From: a virus
UHGV virus genome: UHGV-0117503
Strand: one strand, 5' to 3'
Length of the DNA stretch: 10,777 nucleotides
Made by a program: the position numbers and the translations under genes. The notes under the pieces are model-generated. The model was not told where the DNA came from. It made no database searches and saw only the letters and a program-made list of their open reading frames with translations. Below are positions 263 through 9,732 of this stretch, one piece after another (position 1 is the first letter of the stretch; each line of letters starts with the position of its first letter).

Positions 263-523
263 CCAATCAGGCTCTTGCAAACTTCGCAGGTTTCGTTGTG
301 GCTGTGAGCTTTAGCTTCTTCGCGAATGCAAAATTCACATTCAAAGCTTCGACTACAACGATGCGCTACATGTTATATGTAGGATTCATGGGAACACTGA
401 GTGCTACTGTTGGATGGGCTGCCGATAAATGTGCACTTCCTCACTCTTGTCACCTTCTCCGCCATCAGCCTGGTTTGCGGTTTCGTCTATTCAAAGTTCA
501 TTGTCTTTAGGGATGCGAAATGA
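263..523 (+). pseudogene. gtrA: gtrA-like bactoprenol-glucose flippase remnant: N-terminus replaced and body frameshifted
   Basis: From about nt 263 the same frame reads QALANFAGFVVAVSFSFFANAKFTFKASTTTMRYMLYVGFMGTLSATVGWAADKCALP, which matches GtrA as I recall it. The expected C-terminus [26 protein letters not shown] is in the adjacent frame (open 401-523), ending at TGA 521-523 in an ATGA overlap with the gtrB start. The frame switch lies at about nt 439-445. Confidence 0.55.
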
Positions 524-1431
524 AGATATCTCTTGTAGTTCCTGTCTTCAATGAAGAAGAAGCAATACCAATTTTTTATAAAACGGTACGTGAATTCGAA
601 GAGTTGAAGCCATATGAAGTGGAAATTGTTTTCATAAATGACGGAAGCAAAGACTCTACGGAGTCAATTATTAATGCTCTGGCTGTTTCAGATCCCCTAG
701 TTGTTCCGCTGTCATTTACACGCAACTTTGGTAAAGAACCAGCATTGTTTGCAGGATTAGACCATGCAACAGGTGATGCCGTTATTCCTATTGATGTTGA
801 CCTGCAAGACCCGATTGAGGTTATTCCTCATCTTATTGAAAAGTGGCAGGCAGGCGCTGATATGGTGCTTGCTAAACGTTCGGATCGTTCAACCGATGGA
901 AAATTAAAACGAAAAACAGCTGAGTGGTTCTACAAACTTCACAATAAAATAAGTAATCCAAAGATCGAGGACAATGTTGGCGACTTTAGACTAATGTCCA
1001 GACATGTTGTTGAGAATATTAAACTTCTACCAGAACGAAATCTATTCATGAAAGGAGTTCTAAGCTGGGTTGGTGGAGAAATAAGTATTGTTGAGTATGC
1101 CAGAGCGGAACGCATTGCGGGGACGACTAAATTTAATGGCTGGAAATTATGGAACTTAGCTCTTGAGGGTATAACTGGTTTTTCAACATTTCCTCTACGA
1201 ATGTGGACATATATAGGATTATTTGTTGCAACAATATCATTCATGTACGGAGCATGGATGATATTGGATAAAATTTTATTTGGAAACAACGTACCAGGTT
1301 ATCCCTCACTTCTTGTTTCTATTCTTTTTCTTGGTGGGATTCAATTGATTGGCATTGGAGTCCTAGGTGAATATATAGGAAGAATCTATATTGAAACCAA
1401 AAAAAGACCTAGATACCTTATAAAAAAATAG
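520..1431 (+). CDS. gtrB: GtrB, bactoprenol glucosyltransferase (GT2 family)
   Basis: The 303-aa ORF starts [29 protein letters not shown], contains DGSKD and a DVDLQD-type GT2 motif, and ends in two C-terminal transmembrane helices and ...IETKKRP. It is near-identical over its length to enterobacterial prophage GtrB/YfdH as I remember it. Confidence 0.93.
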
Positions 1432-1432
1432 G

Positions 1433-2893
1433 ATGCATATGAACTTTTTAATTAGAGAAAGCGAAAAGAAAGCATTTGCTTTATTATTTGCAACCGCATT
1501 GCTTTTTATATATCCATTAATGCATTATGGTATATATTTTCGAGACGATCTACACAGATCTGTAACTGGATACTATGGATGGAGCGGCCTTGGTAGACCA
1601 CTCGCAGATATAGTTATAAAAGTAGCATCAGCAAGCGGAGATAGACTATTAGATATTTTCCCGTATAACTTAATACTATCTTGCGCCATGCTATCACTAG
1701 CATGTATACATATAGCTAGATTATTACAACATCTAAACATAAAGAAGCCAACGTTTTGTGCCTCATTGTTTATCTTTAATCCATTTTTTCTACAAAATCT
1801 AGCTTATAGATTTGACTCCACAGGAATGTCTTTAGCACTTCTTCTTTGTGCGCTTTCATACACCTACCAAAATAACAATATTTATATATCATTGGTAATT
1901 AAAATTTCACTTGGTGTCGCAACACTTTCACTGTATCAACCATGTGCAAATCTATTCATTGGGTTGCTATCAATCGAGCTCTCTGCATTATTCATTACTA
2001 ACAACACAAACAACAAAAAATTATTTTTAACATTAATCAAAAAAGCTGGAGTATTTTTATCATTCTACTCTATTTACTTTCTAATCGTAGCAAGAATATG
2101 GGGTTCAGAAAACAATAGATCTGAAATCGTCAAGTTAAATACAGATGGATTAAATCATATTTATAATACATTCCAAAGACTCAATACCTTGCTTGAGTCA
2201 TTTTTTAATGGTCCAGTTATTTTTTATTTTATACCACCGGTTATTTTATTATTTATTTTTATTATCCTTACCGTTTACAAAAATAGAAACAACTCGTTGG
2301 CAACCAAGATGCTTTTATTATTGCTATCATTGAGCTCGGCATATATATCTCTTCTTGGGCCGACATTTATTCTTGTTGATGCGCCCGTATTTCCAAGAAC
2401 GCTGGTAAGCTTCTCAATCCTCTTTGTTTTATTTTCCATGTATATAATTTCACTTTGTGATAAGCTAAAATGCATTGCATTAATACCTGTAGTAACAGTA
2501 ATAGCATTTAGCTCTCAATTTGCCAACGCACTGAACACCCAAAGAGAACATGAGAACTTTGTTTTAAATATGGTTGCATATGATTTAATGAATATAAATG
2601 GAATACAAAAAATTAAGACAGTGGGCAAGATAAGATTCAGTAAAAGAGCTGAATTACTCACAAATGATAAGCCTCTAATAAGCCAATCTATAAGCAGGGC
2701 TACTGAATTTCTTGCAACTTATCAAATGGTTAACAAGGGCTTGAAAGGTGTAAGCGATGGTTATGGCATAGAAAAATCCAATAAGGAAGAGTTGGACTCA
2801 TTCAAAAGCAATGGTGTTAAACCATATGTTGATAACAATGAATACTCAATATATGAAAATAATGGCGTTGCAATTGTAGTTTTTAAGGGATAA
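1433..2893 (+). CDS. GtrC-family serotype-specific O-antigen glucosyltransferase (polytopic membrane protein); type not identifiable by eye
   Basis: The 486-aa ORF lies immediately after gtrB (gtrB stop 1429-1431, ATG 1433; an alternative ATG at 1439 has AGGA 5 nt upstream). It is very AT-rich, with many hydrophobic segments and a hydrophilic C-terminal domain, which is the usual third gene of a gtr cassette. Confidence 0.75.
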   Translation: MHMNFLIRESEKKAFALLFATALLFIYPLMHYGIYFRDDLHRSVTGYYGWSGLGRPLADIVIKVASASGDRLLDIFPYNLILSCAMLSLACIHIARLLQHLNIKKPTFCASLFIFNPFFLQNLAYRFDSTGMSLALLLCALSYTYQNNNIYISLVIKISLGVATLSLYQPCANLFIGLLSIELSALFITNNTNNKKLFLTLIKKAGVFLSFYSIYFLIVARIWGSENNRSEIVKLNTDGLNHIYNTFQRLNTLLESFFNGPVIFYFIPPVILLFIFIILTVYKNRNNSLATKMLLLLLSLSSAYISLLGPTFILVDAPVFPRTLVSFSILFVLFSMYIISLCDKLKCIALIPVVTVIAFSSQFANALNTQREHENFVLNMVAYDLMNINGIQKIKTVGKIRFSKRAELLTNDKPLISQSISRATEFLATYQMVNKGLKGVSDGYGIEKSNKEELDSFKSNGVKPYVDNNEYSIYENNGVAIVVFKG

Positions 2894-2980: not shown

Positions 2981-4957
2981 TCACCTCCATTTAAACCGAG
3001 GTGAATATTCCCCGTTATTGAATCTTCCTATACTTACCTGTATTGTCGCCGGAGAATCAGAAAGAACCTCGGTGCTATGCAATGATAGTATAAGTGATGA
3101 TGATTCTATATCTCTATCTGCTTCGACCACATAACCATAATCTCGTTCTGGCTCTGTAAAATAAGCTATTGGTTTTCCGTTTGCTGCAATGGTAAATCTT
3201 CCACCAACAAATTTACCCTTGAACATAACATGTATTTTTATCCGAGTAACTCCCTTCGGTAAAACACAACCAGCATTTAATGATGCTGTAGAGTTTATAT
3301 TGAAATCTTTCCTTATCACTGTGTATGGAATTGCATATAAAGCTTCAGCAAAGTTTGATTGAGACTGATACTCTGTCGCAGCAATAGAGCTCCCCCCCAT
3401 AATTCTAAATCCTCCAACACCGGAGAACACACTATTAAAAGCATCCACAGCTTTCGTAAAGTTACCAATACAAACAGGTGTTTCTGCATCATTAATGAAT
3501 TGTTCCCTTGAATACAATGTCACACTGTTTATATATGTACTTTTATAACCACCAATATCATCAGGGCTTAAAAATCCATACCCATTGGAACCATCAGATA
3601 CGCCATTAAATTCTGTATAATAGCTACAAAATTCGTTAGATGATCTTGGAGATGTCTCAATCCATCCAAATCCAAAATTTCTCTCTGACTGAATATTGCT
3701 ATAAGTACACCCACTACTCCGCGTTATAAGGCCTGCGCCACTATAGCGCGTCGCTGAGTCTGGTGATGGGTCAAAATCACCATTGCGACCATTTGTGTGT
3801 GTACGTATACGTAAAAAACTAACAGAATTTACAGCCAAATCATCAGTTTCTCCTTGAGTAGGATAACCAATAACAACTCCGCGCCCATAGTTATCATGTG
3901 CAACTATTGTTCCAAATGAACAGAACCAAGACTGATAAACTGATATGCCGACGACACGAGCATTTATGGCTGTAATATTGTCGCAATGTGACTCATTTGT
4001 AAAATATCTAAAATAAAATCCATTTGTCGCCTTATTATCACAATCAGAAATTATATTTGTAATTCTTACTGAGCTTACATCTTCAGTTGGTGTAACTCCA
4101 ATTGGAGAGCGAGAGCATCTAATAACAGCCTTTTTAATTGCAACATCCCCAATCCATTTAATGGTTGTAGCAAATCTATTACCTGCTCGCAGAGAATTTC
4201 CATATCCTCTCATATCCAAGCCATTTGGAGGCACAAACTCATCTGTAATTCCAATAACACCAGCTGGAAGGATTAAAGGTAGTTTATTATCAGATGCGAA
4301 TTTAGCAGCACTGGTTAACTCATTAATTGAATCTTTTTCTCCATTTAAATTAACCCCCCACCATTTTAATAGAACTTCTCCATTGATATTTCGTTTCCAC
4401 CGCCTCCCAATTGCGTCAATAAGTATTGTTCCTCCATTATCTTGAGATGTAGAATCATACTTATCAATTTCAAATATTCCATTTCCACCATCAAATATAT
4501 TTCGCACACCATATACATAGCATCTATGCATATTCCCGCTATAATTTCTAATATCTTCGTAATTTGCTCCACCTATATATCCCAAACCGAAGCTTTGAGA
4601 TAATTGAACTTTAAATTGATCAGGTTCATACTTCAGCACATTCGGAAAATAAAACTGCTGAGCACCGTATGCATCATAAACAGCCATAGAATGGCCTTGC
4701 ACAGTTACGAACTTGGCAATCTGTCCGTTATATACCGGGTAACCAGCAGCGTTAATGATGATTGGTTGCGAAACAGGAACGTGAGAGCCGTCTTCGTTCT
4801 CCATATAAACCTGAATCTGGTTTTCTGGATTTACGGGGTCCGTGTCAATTTTACCGATATAAATTTTGCCATTGGCTACCGCTTTAAAAGAACGAGCCAT
4901 AGTGAAGAGTTGCGAAGGCATGCTTACCACAACATTGGCATTTATTGAATCTGTCAT
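2981..4957 (-). CDS. Tailspike protein: P22/Sf6-like head-binding N-terminal domain with a divergent receptor-binding (probable beta-helix depolymerase) domain
   Basis: The N-terminus [51 protein letters not shown]...[27 protein letters not shown] matches the conserved P22/Sf6 tailspike N-terminal domain from memory. The start is set at the internal ATG (4957..4955) that gives MTD..., not the upstream start at 5002 in the ORF track. The remaining ~540 aa are rich in G/N/S/T/I/V. Confidence 0.88.
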
Positions 4958-4982
4958 TTTAATTTCTCTATATGTTAAGCAA

Positions 4983-5016
4983 GCAATATTCATTGCTAGC
5001 ATGTTTTTTGTATAAT
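4983..5016 (+). promoter_or_regulatory. Putative sigma70 promoter for the HNH gene, in the divergent tailspike/HNH intergenic region
   Basis: A consensus TATAAT sits at 5011-5016 directly preceded by TTG, with a small palindrome GCAAT-ATTC-ATTGC at 4983-4996 upstream. No convincing -35 element at 17-bp spacing. Confidence 0.3.
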
Positions 5017-5044
5017 GAGTGAACTTTATTTAAAGGTGGTTAAC

Positions 5045-5554
5045 ATGAACTGGAACGAAGTATTCGTATTAAAAGACGATGGACTCCTGTACTGGAGTGA
5101 CCAATATCTTTCAAGACCCAAAATGTTCAATATTTCTAAAGAAAAGCCTACAGGACATATATTCAAGGACAAGAACAGGAAAACATCTTATATAATTATC
5201 AGGTATCAAGATAAAATATACGCCGCCCATAGGATAATATGGGAAATGTTTTATGGTGAAATCCCTTCAGGAATGCAAATTGACCATAAAGATGGTAATG
5301 GGTTAAATAATTCAATAGACAACCTGCGTCTAGTTAGTCTCGGTGAAAACCTAAAAAACAAATCTAAATACACAAACAATACATCTGGGTGCGCAGGTGT
5401 TTCATGGCATAAGACCCATAAAAAGTGGGTGGCATATATTAGCGACGCAGGGAAGCGCATTAATCTCGGATACTTTAAGTGTCTCGATGATGCAATTGCT
5501 GTAAGGCGTGATGCTGAAAAGACCTATGGTTATCATGAGAATCATGGTAGGTGA
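5045..5554 (+). CDS. HNH endonuclease with a C-terminal AP2-like DNA-binding domain (homing-endonuclease-like)
   Basis: Motif IDHKDGNGLNNSIDNLRLVS is HNH-like, followed by GVSWHKTHKKWVAYIS...KRINLGYFKCLDDAIAVRRDAEKTYG, which is AP2-like. The start is set at ATG 5045, which has AAGGTGG 5 nt upstream; the ORF track begins at 5015. Confidence 0.8.
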   Translation: MNWNEVFVLKDDGLLYWSDQYLSRPKMFNISKEKPTGHIFKDKNRKTSYIIIRYQDKIYAAHRIIWEMFYGEIPSGMQIDHKDGNGLNNSIDNLRLVSLGENLKNKSKYTNNTSGCAGVSWHKTHKKWVAYISDAGKRINLGYFKCLDDAIAVRRDAEKTYGYHENHGR

Positions 5555-5685
5555 TATCTGACATTTCATTGCTCCAGACGAATGATATGATGCAACCATG
5601 ATGTGATTGCATACCGAAATGGTACTATTGAGTATTTATCCAGTAGGTTACGATGCCATTCCACCCAACTGGTGAGGCATCAAGG

Positions 5686-5946
5686 ATGTACAGCAAATAC
5701 GACGAGGCGCAGTTTCACTTGAGACTTCCGCATGAACTCCACGCGAAAATTAAACAGCGCGCGAAGATGAATAACAGGTCGCTGAACTCAGAGATAATTG
5801 CAGCGATTGAAGAATCATTGGCTAAACAAAGCTCTGCATCAGTTTACATTGACGATGCAGAGCGTATGGCAGAACAACAATCTGATATGGTTAAGAAAAT
5901 TGTCTTTGATACGCTCAAAGAGCTATATAAAAAAGACAGCAGCTAA
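5686..5946 (+). CDS. mnt: Mnt-like ribbon-helix-helix repressor (P22 immI-type)
   Basis: The C-terminal half DDAERMAEQQSDMVKKIVFDTLKELYKKDSS closely matches P22 Mnt (...NDAERLADEQSELVKKMVFDTLKDLYKK) as I recall it, and the N-terminal region FHLRLPHELHAKIKQRAKMNNRSLNSEI is RHH-like. The start is set at ATG 5686 (GAGG 8 nt upstream), not the track start at 5653. Confidence 0.8.
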   Translation: MYSKYDEAQFHLRLPHELHAKIKQRAKMNNRSLNSEIIAAIEESLAKQSSASVYIDDAERMAEQQSDMVKKIVFDTLKELYKKDSS

Positions 5947-5966: not shown

Positions 5967-6044
5967 ATGCAAAGAGATATGCTGAATATTGCGTTCTACA
6001 TATTTGGTTTTTGCACGTTCCTGGTGTTTGCGAAGCTATTCTGA
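5967..6044 (+). CDS. Hypothetical 25-aa hydrophobic peptide (possible single-pass membrane protein)
   Basis: GGAGGA at 5958-5963 is followed by ATG at 5967. The ORF encodes MQRDMLNIAFYIFGFCTFLVFAKLF and stops at TGA 6042-6044, 21 nt after mnt on the same strand. It is absent from the ORF track because of its size; it is unproven. Confidence 0.25.
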   Translation: MQRDMLNIAFYIFGFCTFLVFAKLF

Positions 6045-7199
6045 CAACGCATCAGACTTGGCACCTTGAGTCAGGGCGTTAATGGCCTTTTGCGCCTGCT
6101 GCATGGCTTTCTCAAACGCTGTTGATCCGCGTGGGGTGTTTGCCATTCGGAGCATTGCATTTCTGAATGGCTCGCTCTCATAGGCGCGAGTAAGAAGTCC
6201 GTAGCTTACCGCTGCGCCAGTTGTCGCCGGGTTCATTGCCGTCCCATATCCGATAATGAACGGGATGGTTTGCTGCCCTGTTGGTGTTGTTACTGCTGCT
6301 TTTGCAGCCTGCTGCGTGGATTGCAGGTAGTTTTTCAATCCTTTCAGATAAGCGGCTTCATGACCTTTAAATGTGATGCCAGTCTGGTTTTGCAGGATAT
6401 TAAGCTGCCGAAGGAACTGGTCAGGGGATCCGCCAGATTTCTCCATCGCCTTTCCAATGATGCCATTGCGCATTTGCGCCCTGCCAACACGACCAACTGA
6501 GTTATACAGCGTCTTAATTTCAGATTTGTTCTTGCTGAATAGCATGTTGTTGACAACTTCCGGCGTCAGGTCGCCTTTCATGAGAACATTCTTCAGCCTG
6601 GTATTCTTTAGTTTCGCCGCTTCGTCAGCGTAGACGGCATTGGCCTGCTGATATTTACGAAGAGTATCATTGCCAAGATTCTGACCAATGGCACCATTGA
6701 TATCGTCGGTCATCGCCTTGTAAACTCGCTGAATGGCAGCATCGGAACGGTTTGGTAACACTGGTCGCTCACCCTTCACGTCCATTCTGAACTGGCTGCG
6801 CAGATCGCTTAATTGCTTCAAATCCAGATTGACCGGACCATCAGGACCAGCATTGCGAACAAGCTCATCACGATATGACTGAAGTTTTGAAATAGTCTCG
6901 TTATCAGCCACCTTACCAAGCTTCTGCAGATTAGATATCTCAGTATCAATCTGCTGAATTGCTCGCGCAGGCTGAATGTTTACTCCAGCCATAGCATTCT
7001 GAACCTGCTCCAGTCGATTACCGGCGGCACGCCGAATTCCTGATGTTTTCGCTTTAAGGCTGTCAATAACAACTGCCGGATCGTACTCGCCGAATTTATC
7101 AGCAAATCTCTGCACCAACTGACTTCTCGCTTCCTGTTGCGTTGCTCTCATTCCGCTTGTGCCAGCCAGGGGGATATTTTCTGCTGTGGTCTGCGCCAT
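6036..7199 (-). CDS. Virion ejection/internal protein, probably the C-terminal part of the lytic-transglycosylase protein encoded upstream (387-aa ORF)
   Basis: Long ORF in the late-gene orientation. Its frame is open upstream of the ATG at 7199 as far as a stop at 7334..7332 and reads protein-like there (GAIAPEAQQAIRFAEREGVPLHTTDLLQPTSRVGK). It overlaps the upstream ORF by 52 nt. Confidence 0.6.
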   Translation of the reverse strand: MAQTTAENIPLAGTSGMRATQQEARSQLVQRFADKFGEYDPAVVIDSLKAKTSGIRRAAGNRLEQVQNAMAGVNIQPARAIQQIDTEISNLQKLGKVADNETISKLQSYRDELVRNAGPDGPVNLDLKQLSDLRSQFRMDVKGERPVLPNRSDAAIQRVYKAMTDDINGAIGQNLGNDTLRKYQQANAVYADEAAKLKNTRLKNVLMKGDLTPEVVNNMLFSKNKSEIKTLYNSVGRVGRAQMRNGIIGKAMEKSGGSPDQFLRQLNILQNQTGITFKGHEAAYLKGLKNYLQSTQQAAKAAVTTPTGQQTIPFIIGYGTAMNPATTGAAVSYGLLTRAYESEPFRNAMLRMANTPRGSTAFEKAMQQAQKAINALTQGAKSDALSE

Positions 7200-8413
7200 T
7201 TTCCCGACGCGGGAAGTAGGCTGTAACAGGTCTGTGGTGTGCAGAGGAACTCCTTCACGCTCTGCAAATCTGATAGCCTGCTGCGCTTCTGGCGCAATAG
7301 CACCACGAACGCCACGATACGTCCGGCAGCGTTAATAGCACCGCCAGCCAACACACCAACGCCTAAATCGGTGGCGAGTGCTTCCGCATCATCTTTCGCA
7401 CTATTTGCAGCAAGTGATCCAACTGCGTTTTCAGCGAGAAGGCGAGTTGCCCCCTGAGCAATTCGACCAGCAAGTGTTGGTGCCTGTGTTGCCGCTCTCT
7501 CAACGCCAGCAGGAGTGAGGTAAGGCAACGCTTCAGCAAATACCCTTCCCTCTGTCGTTTGTGGAGTCAGCGCGCCTTGCTGAAGGCCAAAGTCCTGCTC
7601 TAATCCCTGCGTTGTTACTCGTGGCGCTGGTTGATATGTACCATCGCCAATGCCGAGTTTACCGCCAGCCCAAGCCGCCGCGCTTGTTACAGCATCAGTG
7701 AGTTCAGCAGGTATGTTCGCTACGTTGATTCCTGCCTGTAGTAAGCCGCGCCCGGTTTCAGCAAGTCCATTACCAAGGTCAGACATTATTCCGCCTTGTT
7801 GCTGAACAGGTTTCGGTGCGACAGAACTTACGGGTTGAGGTGGCTGCTGACTGGCTGCCTGCTGCTCAATCTGAGCAAATGGATTATTTGGGTCTGACTG
7901 CACACCTGATGCCGATACTTGTTCGGATGACTGTACTTCCAGTTGTGCAAACGGGTTGTTAGGGTCTTGCTGAGGATGTACCTTTGCAGAGGTGGCGCGC
8001 TGTTCGACTGTTGAGTCTGTCACCGGGTCACCCGCCCATTGAGCAAAGCGATCATCAACGTAACCGCGGCCTTCAGGTCCTGGCGTATATTCACCACGCT
8101 TTGCCTTCATAACGTTGCCGGGACCGTCGTGATAAGCCTGAAGAGCGTCACGCCAGTTACCAAACTGCTGGTACATCTTTGCCAGATAGCGCGCGCCAGC
8201 GTCAGCCTGATATTCGGGGTTTTGCATTTGCTCATCGGTATAACCCATATCACGCCATGTCCCAGGCATGACCTGAGTCAATCCTACAGCCCCGGCGGAG
8301 CTTACTGCGGCAGGGTTGTAAGAAGACTCCTTGGCACCCAGTGCAGTCATCAACCCTTCTGGCACACCGTAACGTGCGCCAGCCTGCTCTAACAAATCAC
8401 GGTAATTAGCCAT
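7148..8413 (-). CDS. Virion ejection/internal protein with an N-terminal lytic transglycosylase (SLT) domain; the last ~55 codons of this frame are probably out of frame
   Basis: N-terminal GAKESSYNPAAVSSAGAVGLTQVMPGTW...YLAKMY is a classic SLT catalytic-region signature. A Q/P-rich linker carries a duplicated DPNNPFAQ motif. The C-terminal stretch of this frame (RIVAFVVLLRQKRSRLSDLQSVKEFLCTPQTCYSLLPASGKWRRPQQ...) looks like non-coding translation. Confidence 0.75.
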   Translation of the reverse strand: MANYRDLLEQAGARYGVPEGLMTALGAKESSYNPAAVSSAGAVGLTQVMPGTWRDMGYTDEQMQNPEYQADAGARYLAKMYQQFGNWRDALQAYHDGPGNVMKAKRGEYTPGPEGRGYVDDRFAQWAGDPVTDSTVEQRATSAKVHPQQDPNNPFAQLEVQSSEQVSASGVQSDPNNPFAQIEQQAASQQPPQPVSSVAPKPVQQQGGIMSDLGNGLAETGRGLLQAGINVANIPAELTDAVTSAAAWAGGKLGIGDGTYQPAPRVTTQGLEQDFGLQQGALTPQTTEGRVFAEALPYLTPAGVERAATQAPTLAGRIAQGATRLLAENAVGSLAANSAKDDAEALATDLGVGVLAGGAINAAGRIVAFVVLLRQKRSRLSDLQSVKEFLCTPQTCYSLLPASGKWRRPQQKISPWLAQAE

Positions 8414-9211
8414 TTACTGCCCCAAAGATGGAAGATATCCGTAGCGATTAATGAAGTCGATTGACAGCTCGGGGTGCTGCTTCAGGTAATCTATAGAAGC
8501 CTGAGGCGCTTCCACTCGCTTGATACCGTTTTGCTGAACGTACTTACCAACCGCCTCATTACGCTTCTGGTTGAGCGTGTTCAGGATGACGCCAGCGTTG
8601 CGACGAAAGGACTCCTCGCTCTGCGAGTTCTGCAGCGAACCAACAGCCTGGTCGAGCTTTTTGCCCTCGGCATCAGAAAGTGCGCCCATGCCTCGCATGG
8701 CCTGAACCGCTGTCAGGTATGCTTGTGATTTAAAGGTATCAAGTCGTGCCTGAGTGTCTGCAGCCTGTGAGCCTGGAACGTTGGGGATTACTCCACGTAA
8801 GCCTGTAATGCTCTTAAGTGAAGGAGAACTAACGATATCGTTCAGAGTGAACATGCTGGTTGTGAGGGTGTTGATGCCGTCTTTGTAGCCATCATTTAGC
8901 GCTTGCTGCTTCTGCTGCAACTGCTGGTTGTTGGCTGCTATGCGGCTCTGTATTTCCTGGCGCTTCAGGTCGTTAGTTTCTGCTGATAGCATCCGGTCAA
9001 GGCGCTTATTTTCGTTGTTAATGCGGTTTGTTTCTGCGTCCAGATTAATGCGCTGCTGACCTAAATTCGCCTGGATATCTTGCCCGCGCATTGTGATTGC
9101 CTGATTCCGAGCGGCGGTTTGCGAATCCAGATCCTGACCGCGCATGGTAACCTGGCGACCCTGCATTTTATCCTGTAGGTCAAAGTATTTTTCGGGTCCG
9201 AGACTGTTCAT
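8414..9211 (-). CDS. Virion ejection/internal protein (265 aa) with a Q-rich coiled-coil-like region
   Basis: Its start ATG overlaps the stop of the upstream gene (ATGA at 9208-9211), and its stop TAA (8416..8414) directly abuts the ATG of the SLT protein. The content RIAANNQQLQQKQQALNDGYKDG is typical of phage internal proteins. It sits between the gene-7 and gene-16 positions of P22. Confidence 0.7.
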   Translation of the reverse strand: MNSLGPEKYFDLQDKMQGRQVTMRGQDLDSQTAARNQAITMRGQDIQANLGQQRINLDAETNRINNENKRLDRMLSAETNDLKRQEIQSRIAANNQQLQQKQQALNDGYKDGINTLTTSMFTLNDIVSSPSLKSITGLRGVIPNVPGSQAADTQARLDTFKSQAYLTAVQAMRGMGALSDAEGKKLDQAVGSLQNSQSEESFRRNAGVILNTLNQKRNEAVGKYVQQNGIKRVEAPQASIDYLKQHPELSIDFINRYGYLPSLGQ

Positions 9212-9732
9212 CCCAGGTGATCGAACTGCCGCGGGTTCTGTTGGTACATCTGAGCGACGTCCTGAGGATTAACGCCAACACGAGCTAACTCACCGGCGTT
9301 GTTTTGCAGCCATGATTGCATTGCTTCTGGAGACGATGACGCAAGGCGTGCGCCAGCCGCTAAGGTGCCGATAGAATTACGCTGATCTTCATCAATGAAT
9401 CCCATGCCTTTACGAACGGATTCAATCTGGTCTGGATATTGAGTAGCCAACTGACGCAAAGCACTGCGATCACCAGACGCATAAGCATTAGCGTACGCCT
9501 GCTGAAATTCTTTCTGCCGCTGAGCCTGCTTTTCCTGCTGAAACACCCCTGCAATACCTGAAAGGCCTTGCAAAGCAGTCAGCCCAACATTGTTAGCGCC
9601 TGAACGCTCAATATCATTGTTCTGCCTGATAAGCTGAAGCGTATTGCCGATGTCATTTACGCTCGGAGCGTTTGAGTTGACGCCGCCGATACCAGCCAAC
9701 AATCCGCCGTTTGTTCCTTGCCAAGTAGCCAT
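9208..9732 (-). CDS. Virion ejection/internal protein (174 aa)
   Basis: ATG at 9732..9730 has AAGGGG upstream. The product is G/A/Q/N-rich, and the gene is tightly coupled to its neighbours on both sides. Confidence 0.7.
   Translation of the reverse strand: MATWQGTNGGLLAGIGGVNSNAPSVNDIGNTLQLIRQNNDIERSGANNVGLTALQGLSGIAGVFQQEKQAQRQKEFQQAYANAYASGDRSALRQLATQYPDQIESVRKGMGFIDEDQRNSIGTLAAGARLASSSPEAMQSWLQNNAGELARVGVNPQDVAQMYQQNPRQFDHLG

Follow-up and report, generated by a model that had tools for sequence, protein, structure and literature searches.

Homing endonucleases in which an HNH nuclease is joined to an AP2 domain are a recognised family, with members in phages, protists and cyanobacteria (Magnani et al. 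2004, as cited in PMC10448857). In general, the nuclease genes of phages lie at genetic-exchange boundaries, and the freestanding homing endonucleases of T4-type phages and of ICP1 (seg, mob) are optional genes that lie beside a conserved essential gene, at a mosaic module-exchange boundary (PMC10448857). Here we describe an HNH-AP2 gene in the UHGV virus genome UHGV-0117503, a stretch of 10,777 nucleotides (the window) that forms the right end of a P22-like (Lederbergvirus-type) Escherichia coli prophage. The gene is carried by a cassette that is inserted after codon 5 within the tailspike coding sequence, not between genes. From the sequence features set out below we read the region, with a probability of roughly 60%, as a freestanding HNH-AP2 homing-endonuclease gene cassette specific for the tailspike 5′ end of P22-like phages.

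The window protein has the same two-domain architecture as the HNH-AP2 family and PHROG 99, whose phage homologs number in the thousands (4221 phage records, the nearest about 47% identical), often occur several to a genome and are annotated as HNH or homing endonucleases. It differs from this wider family in that its own clade (63-98% identity) occurs at one site only, the start of the tailspike gene in P22-like Enterobacteriaceae prophages. As with the T4-type and ICP1 genes, the carrier's copy of the target, here a putative one, differs by a local polymorphism; those genes, however, normally lie between genes, whereas the gene in the window interrupts codon 5, restores the start and sits in a temperate phage. 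I-HmuI, the HNH homing endonuclease of Bacillus phage SPO1 (PDB 1u3e), lies inside a group I intron and has different C-terminal DNA-binding modules, while the window gene is freestanding, antisense to its putative target gene and provided with an AP2-fold domain. Freestanding endonuclease open reading frames (ORFs) of mitochondria, such as the insertion in atp6 of Allomyces macrogynus, invade gene ends and bring a substitute gene terminus. There too the invaded gene goes on working by means of the foreign copy of its end, and its native end persists next to the ORF as a dead remnant, but the mitochondrial elements enter at the 3′ end, encode GIY-YIG or LAGLIDADG enzymes and are in frame, in contrast to the 5′ end with its ribosome-binding site (RBS), the HNH enzyme and the opposite strand found here. 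In P22 the same map interval, from gene 16/mnt to the tailspike gene, is that of immI (mnt-arc-ant), which lies upstream of gene 9; the window has mnt, and the HNH gene is unrelated to arc and ant. The HNH gene is of an ordinary mobile phage kind, and what is unusual is its tidy arrangement, with entry at the 5′ coding end, a substitute start and a dead remnant of the native one. In the open-access literature, where absence is weak evidence, we found no account of an HNH gene located at the tailspike start of P22-like phages; a paper on epsilon34 concerns a different HNH, fused to eaE.

The boundaries of the cassette were obtained by comparison with HNH-less relatives, as the original prediction had suggested, although it had missed that they fall inside the tailspike coding sequence. 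In BLAST alignment, homology to the empty allele of Sf101 stops at 4936 and restarts at 5550, giving junctions at 4936/4937 and 5549/5550 (Table 1). Because the cassette brings an RBS-like sequence together with a tailspike start, the essential tailspike gene stays whole. The replacement start, preceded by AAATTAAA and a Shine-Dalgarno-like AGAGA element (complement of 4965-4969), contains an extra serine codon (Ser4, 4946-4948) and enters the resident tailspike frame at Asn8; its ATG (complement of 4955-4957) agrees at 4957 with the call made by the Prokaryotic Genome Annotation Pipeline (PGAP) in locus L004. At the other junction stands what is left of the old start, which overlaps the last codon and the TGA stop of the HNH gene, so that both are read from it. 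The 15 nt stranded upstream of this remnant are the same as those upstream of canonical MSDIT starts in at least 21 IMG/VR loci and in Sf101. Start and RBS region together make a dead remnant of 30 nt (5550-5579), and the tailspike translation start thus stands on either side of the nuclease gene as a degenerate direct repeat.

The same anatomy recurs in other backgrounds, each of which keeps the remnant of its own canonical start (MSDIT in the Sf101-type, MTDIT in the P22/HK620-type, and a Salmonella-type). The remnant in NRG857C reads ATG ACA GAC ATT ACC and then TTAATTTGCTCCAGATACAAGG. These are the start and upstream sequence canonical in the P22/HK620-type background, and the cassette has entered at the same nucleotide as in the window. 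Both empty alleles are common in a scan of IMG/VR for canonical starts, which gave at least 120 loci among the matches listed. Within those matches the commonest canonical variants are of the form ATCTGGAGCAAATTAA followed by ATGACAGACATTACA... (three variants, with at least 21, at least 20 and at least 5 loci), and the other common variant is CGTCTGGAGCAATGAA followed by ATGTCAGATATCACC... (at least 21 loci). HNH-less N-termini include MSDITANVVV, the canonical form with Sf101-type upstream sequence (at least 21 IMG/VR loci), and MSDITANIVV in Sf101 itself.

A step in divergence marks the edges of the cassette. Among HNH-positive (HNH+) loci its identity is 97.9-100%, against flanks that are 81-94% identical or unalignable. 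Between the window and NRG857C we counted 13 differences in the 613 positions of the cassette, compared with 36 in 339 positions of the adjacent head-binding coding sequence (p=4e-8) and 6 in the first 31 nt to the right (p=1e-4), all Fisher p-values in this work being indicative only. The 12 E. coli HNH+ loci combine the gene with 8 receptor-binding modules, 3 right-flank types and at least 4 left-flank variants (tailspike codons 8-13). The HNH+ loci L022 and L003 have cassette variant and left flank in common, and their right flanks diverge from the second base of the stop codon. The receptor-binding part of the window tailspike is common to just one other HNH+ locus (L191), and E. coli SCPM-O-B-8794 gives the closest complete match (99%) for the 4600-5700 region as well as for the tailspike.

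More distant relatives occupy the same place. Homologs of the window protein occur in Enterobacter ludwigii (82% identical), Salmonella enterica (74%) and two metagenomic loci (66% and 63%), and the closest database homologs all divergently adjoin a Head_binding tailspike gene. The position does not vary between E. coli, Salmonella and Enterobacter. The right-hand neighbours of the 63-82% identical homologs vary, being gene 16 directly, mnt, or Bro/ant-arc-mnt. A remnant start after the HNH stop is kept in most diverged loci; it is degenerate in Enterobacter and gives way to a hairpin in one metagenomic locus (L009). Decayed copies were also seen. One (L056, 7570-8078) is frameshifted by a 1-nt deletion after the HNH motif, another in E. 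whittamii (L192, 3001-3380) lacks the first ~50 codons and has a TAT to TAA stop near the end, with the adjacent tailspike head-binding region lost, and a 152-aa truncated form (P0007) exists in E. coli. The E. whittamii copy and one near-identical E. coli locus were the yield of a scan of GTDB species representatives with clade-specific peptide patterns, which returned 4 loci, 2 of them relevant. In L037 the tailspike beside the cassette is 384 aa long, and the identical gene of L053 leaves the locus after 379 residues; tailspikes of other HNH+ loci have 658-825 aa, and the L037/L053 gene may be truncated.

The extra serine codon follows the nuclease gene closely. Ser4 is present in 18/18 HNH+ alleles and in every lineage, including the four diverged ones (63-82% amino acid identity; MTDSITANVV and similar). 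A pattern scan of IMG/VR found Ser4-type starts in 55 tailspike loci, 10 with the HNH gene and 45 without, so that the gene accompanies 10/55 Ser4 loci as compared with 0/120 canonical loci among the matches listed (p=5e-6). All 45 HNH-less Ser4 alleles, HK620 included, have P22/HK620-type upstream sequence and 0/45 the Sf101-type. For the context found in the window the only HNH-less counterpart is therefore the canonical allele, and it follows that nuclease gene and Ser4 start entered the Sf101-type background as one unit. HK620 (L002, 2540-2600) uses a Ser4 start without any insert, and its sequence is the exact product expected from deletion between the direct repeats TCTGTCATTT(T)AATTT of an NRG857C-type allele. 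A 100-nt query over the HK620 junction gives rough numbers only for complete E. coli genomes, with about 105 matches of ≥95% identity that appear to be Ser4-type and a 96-nt span in the remainder.

The element is optional, which bears out the original prediction of an insertion rather than a core gene. We identified the HNH gene at this site in 15 of 5426 complete E. coli genomes, 9 with the mnt flank of the window and 6 with homology ending at window position 5578, while hundreds show an empty two-piece match spanning 191 bp; the HNH+ share of related E. coli prophage regions is 15 of ~545 (~3%). At the DNA level the gene had no match in 50,697 phage records, so no isolated phage in that collection carries it. 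Sf101 and IME10 match the two flanks only, 191 bp apart, as expected of an empty site, and tblastn matches to the HNH protein in phages are all below 60% identity.

The interval between tailspike start and mnt holds, as had been predicted, a single well-supported plus-strand gene. The accompanying proposal, that this gene takes the place of arc and ant, had to be abandoned. NRG857C has the order tailspike(-), HNH(+), ant(-), arc(-), mnt(+), and in the metagenomic locus L009 a 63%-identical HNH homolog lies between the tailspike gene and ant-arc-mnt, so that the HNH gene coexists with both genes it was thought to replace. Conversely, Sf101 has 88 bp from tailspike ATG to mnt and lacks arc, ant and HNH alike. 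The absence of arc and ant from the window is therefore independent of the HNH gene, which belongs to the tailspike start and not to immI.

The protein has the HNH and AP2-fold architecture of freestanding homing endonucleases, and by its sequence is predicted to be a nuclease of the I-HmuI type. Profile searches confirmed the HNH assignment, with a score of 73 bits for HNH_3 (PF13392; cut-off 24.8, E=1.5e-20) over residues 69-112 (nt 5249-5380) and a match to PHROG 99 'HNH endonuclease' at E=1.6e-57. An alignment of 72 homologs shows no variation at D80, H81 and N93 and almost none at N102, and these residues align to the DHKDGN...N motif of I-HmuI, which is the sole significant PDB sequence match (E=5.9e-6). 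The fold resembles that of a solved HNH endonuclease, the closest solved structure again being I-HmuI. In the AP2-like domain, also named in the original prediction, residues ~115-161 (nt 5387-5527) form a three-stranded antiparallel sheet on a helix that is superposable on solved AP2/ERF domains; the AP2 profile (PF00847) stays below its curated cut-off (23 bits vs 33.3, E=1e-4, residues 127-158). The Plasmodium AP2 structure 3igm is a weak sequence match (E=0.34), and some homologs have a precomputed PF00847 match. The window copy is full length, with every conserved residue present and 2 private substitutions only. The ratio of nonsynonymous to synonymous substitution rates (dN/dS) is 0.11-0.23 against the Salmonella and metagenomic homologs, synonymous sites between lineages being saturated, which argues that the protein has been kept functional over a long time. 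An HNH of the terminase-associated kind found in cos phages (HK97 gp74 type) was rejected, as the gene lies between tailspike and mnt at the far end of the late operon and is optional (~3%).

The gene is oriented like mnt, antisense to the tailspike gene and to late transcription. Its start was taken as the ATG at 5045, 5 nt past a conserved Shine-Dalgarno sequence AAGGTGG (5033-5039), in agreement with the predicted RBS; the start is common to all homologs, and PGAP calls an identical 169-aa protein in E. coli genomes. An earlier start at 5015, as in the mechanical ORF (5015-5554) and in a 179-aa database cluster (P0001), was rejected, its ATG falling inside the -10 hexamer and homologs and PGAP using 5045. 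Of the predicted promoter, TATAAT is present at 5011-5016, and as an extended -10, TTGATATAAT, it is kept at the same place and distance in loci with HNH proteins 63-82% identical, where TTCTCT in the spacer is also conserved; a consensus sigma-70 scan did not call it, because its -35 is weak, and support for the promoter thus comes from conservation only. A palindrome, AGCAAT-ATTC-ATTGCT (4982-4997), overlaps the -35 region. In an Enterobacter locus (L005) the same place has GTAAT-ATTT-ATTAC, with symmetric compensatory changes; the palindrome is perfect in these two and imperfect in other relatives, and may be either a chance occurrence or an operator, for instance an autoregulatory one. Scanning 4850-5750 revealed no minus-strand terminator that might block late read-through into the tailspike gene.

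These features suggest how the element may be inherited. The nuclease would be made from the prophage or early in infection and would recognise the canonical start region, ATG NCA GAY ATY ACN GCN AAY GT, of HNH-less relatives sharing the cell, whether co-infecting, superinfecting or resident as a prophage. It would nick or cut near codon 5/6, a nick rather than a double-strand cut being possible by analogy with I-HmuI, and recombinational repair from the HNH+ genome would copy the cassette in. Of the two copies of the putative site in the carrier, one ends at codon 5 and the 3-nt Ser insertion interrupts the other; with both copies spoiled, the carrier would be immune. Deletion between the direct repeats could then give rise to the common HNH-less Ser4 alleles, such as HK620, as resistant footprints. 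That a homing cassette enters an essential virion gene at its coding 5′ end, is made harmless by its substitute RBS and start, and is rendered uncleavable in the new allele by Ser4 is a more tentative proposal, to which we give somewhat less than an even chance.

Several observations weigh against the homing reading. The recognition site comes from anatomy alone, and cleavage and inheritance are a proposal; expression of the gene is putative in view of the weak -35, and the viability of HNH+ phages is assumed solely from full-length 38-43 kb IMG/VR contigs, there being no cultured carrier in the phage collection. All HNH+ alleles may descend from one ancient insertion, and in that case the association of Ser4 with the HNH gene could be plain physical linkage (<100 bp) rather than selected immunity. 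The sequences fit either loss or gain in the conversion between HK620-type and HNH+ alleles, so that an HK620-type ancestor is possible. Fisher's test overstates the independence of these loci, which are phylogenetically related. P22-like tailspike genes often recombine at the boundary between head-binding and receptor-binding parts, and many tailspike partners would therefore arise without nuclease action.

The main rival explanation is that the gene is a prophage 'moron' retained because it is useful, a nuclease expressed by the lysogen to exclude or damage superinfecting relatives or invading DNA, and spread by descent and mosaic recombination without homing. Such a role would suit its location in the immI/sieA region, the place of exclusion genes in P22-like phages, its mnt-like orientation opposite to late transcription, a -10 of host type that relatives conserve, the strongly purifying selection, and its occurrence in prophages and uncultivated virus genomes (UViGs) only. 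We nevertheless consider it unlikely. One identical nucleotide junction recurs with three types of flank, every one of which keeps a remnant of its own, and divergence changes stepwise at the cassette edges, a pattern not expected from ordinary crossovers; the frameshifted copies and low frequency (~3%) suit a selfish element better. PADLOC matched the protein to three 'HEase' (homing endonuclease) models, the best at E=3.3e-11, and to the core protein of no defence system, on which ground a known anti-phage defence system was rejected. The two readings are compatible, since marker exclusion is another effect of homing nucleases. It is improbable that the gene is an inert relic that was once mobile and is now decaying, with no function in this prophage: decayed copies exist in other loci and the window prophage has further oddities (split ejection-protein ORFs and a truncated gtrA), but the window copy is intact in length and conserved residues, and the dN/dS values speak for selection.

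It is more improbable still that the protein has become a domesticated DNA-binding regulator, its AP2 domain binding near the tailspike/immI control region and its nuclease no longer used. The AP2 fold is intact, the palindrome over the -35 of its own promoter shows compensatory changes in Enterobacter, and I-TevI is a precedent for autoregulation by a homing endonuclease; yet the catalytic HNH positions are invariant or nearly so in the clade and the 72 homologs, and most P22-like phages do without the gene. Least probable of all, and by any measure very improbable, is an intron-borne HNH like I-HmuI, with a self-splicing intron after tailspike codon 5 and the remnant as exon 1. The intron-encoded nature of I-HmuI and the intact start with RBS in the 14-15 nt before the insertion would agree with it, but with an ORF that runs antisense to the host gene and takes up 510 of the 613 nt there is no space for a ribozyme core. 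The cassette ends, moreover, in a start that is homologous, in frame and provided with a Shine-Dalgarno sequence, and HK620 has the identical Ser4 start without any insert. A group I or group II intron was rejected on the absence of an Rfam match of any family in 4700-5900 on both strands (E<=1) and of excess RNA structure, the tailspike-sense cassette RNA folding no better than shuffles (z=-0.17). We retain the freestanding homing endonuclease as the favoured reading.

Table 1. Features of the window, in order of position (strand relative to the sequence as given)
Feature	Position	Strand	Basis or remarks
gtrA, 5′-truncated	left of gtrB	+	
gtrB	520-1431	+	
GtrII-type gene	1433-2893	+	
Tailspike gene, invaded host gene	2981-4957	-	Pfam Head_binding E=7.8e-65; P22-type head-binding domain, then own receptor-binding part
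Whole cassette, 613 bp, absent from empty-site alleles	4937-5549		BLAST vs Sf101
Replacement tailspike start, ATG ACA GAT TCA ATA AAT GCC (MTDSINA)	4937-4957	-	sequence and alignment
Divergent spacer	4958-5044		tailspike Shine-Dalgarno-like AGAGA, palindrome, HNH -10, HNH Shine-Dalgarno sequence
HNH-AP2 endonuclease coding sequence	5045-5554	+	169 aa; stop TGA 5552-5554
Old tailspike start remnant, ATG TCA GAT ATC ACC (MSDIT)	5550-5564	-	identical to live Sf101 tailspike start
Old tailspike RBS region, GTCTGGAGCAATGAA on minus strand	5565-5579	-	stranded upstream of remnant
mnt, Arc/Mnt ribbon-helix-helix repressor	5653-5946; PGAP-type start 5686 (L004)	+	Pfam Arc E=1e-14, Repressor_Mnt E=3.3e-14
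Ejection-protein genes	right of mnt	-	

The remaining features of the window lie outside the cassette (Table 1). The gene to its right, mnt, is an orphan both here and in Sf101, a Mnt-type repressor with no arc or ant to control, and the RefSeq record of Sf101 labels its homolog 'partition protein ATPase', probably a mis-annotation. Between the HNH gene and mnt lie a palindrome, TGCAA-N11-TTGCA (~5593-5613), and a promoter-like site (5558-5586). Among the ejection-protein genes, a gp20-type Inj_translocase is divided over two minus-strand ORFs, 9208-9732 and 8414-9211, that overlap by ATGA, and an ORF for an SLT-domain ejection protein (7148-8413, minus strand) overlaps the adjacent ORF (6036-7199) by 52 nt; just the first 286 residues of the SLT-domain protein resemble the single 911-aa protein of Sf101, and frameshifts or mosaic joins are possible. 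At the left edge, the GC content of positions 1-247 is 63%, and a NIF3/DUF34-like fragment encoded there is fused in frame to the truncated gtrA. This segment has 0 matches among complete E. coli genomes, and 248-700 matches gtrA/gtrB at 98% in hundreds; positions 1-247 appear to be foreign DNA, or a chimeric join, at the edge of the window.

The practical outcome is a correction, in that the HNH gene is to be seen as a selfish add-on of the tailspike start and not as a substitute for arc/ant immunity. If the element does home, P22-like prophages would offer a testable natural system in temperate enterobacterial phages, with Sf101 and P22 sensitive, HK620 predicted to be resistant and NRG857C-type lysogens as donors. 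It would also show how a freestanding nuclease gene enters a coding sequence without killing it, and would explain a one-codon polymorphism in a much-studied protein family. Should the more specific proposal about entry and Ser4 hold as well, the HK620-type extra serine, present in about a fifth of E. coli P22-like tailspike starts, would be the footprint of past invasion and loss, and the nuclease would make breaks at the boundary where P22-like phages swap receptor-binding modules, so that the element would help to drive host-range exchange. A break-making enzyme at this recombination hot spot of the tailspike gene would be relevant to phage typing and to the engineering of P22-like phages.

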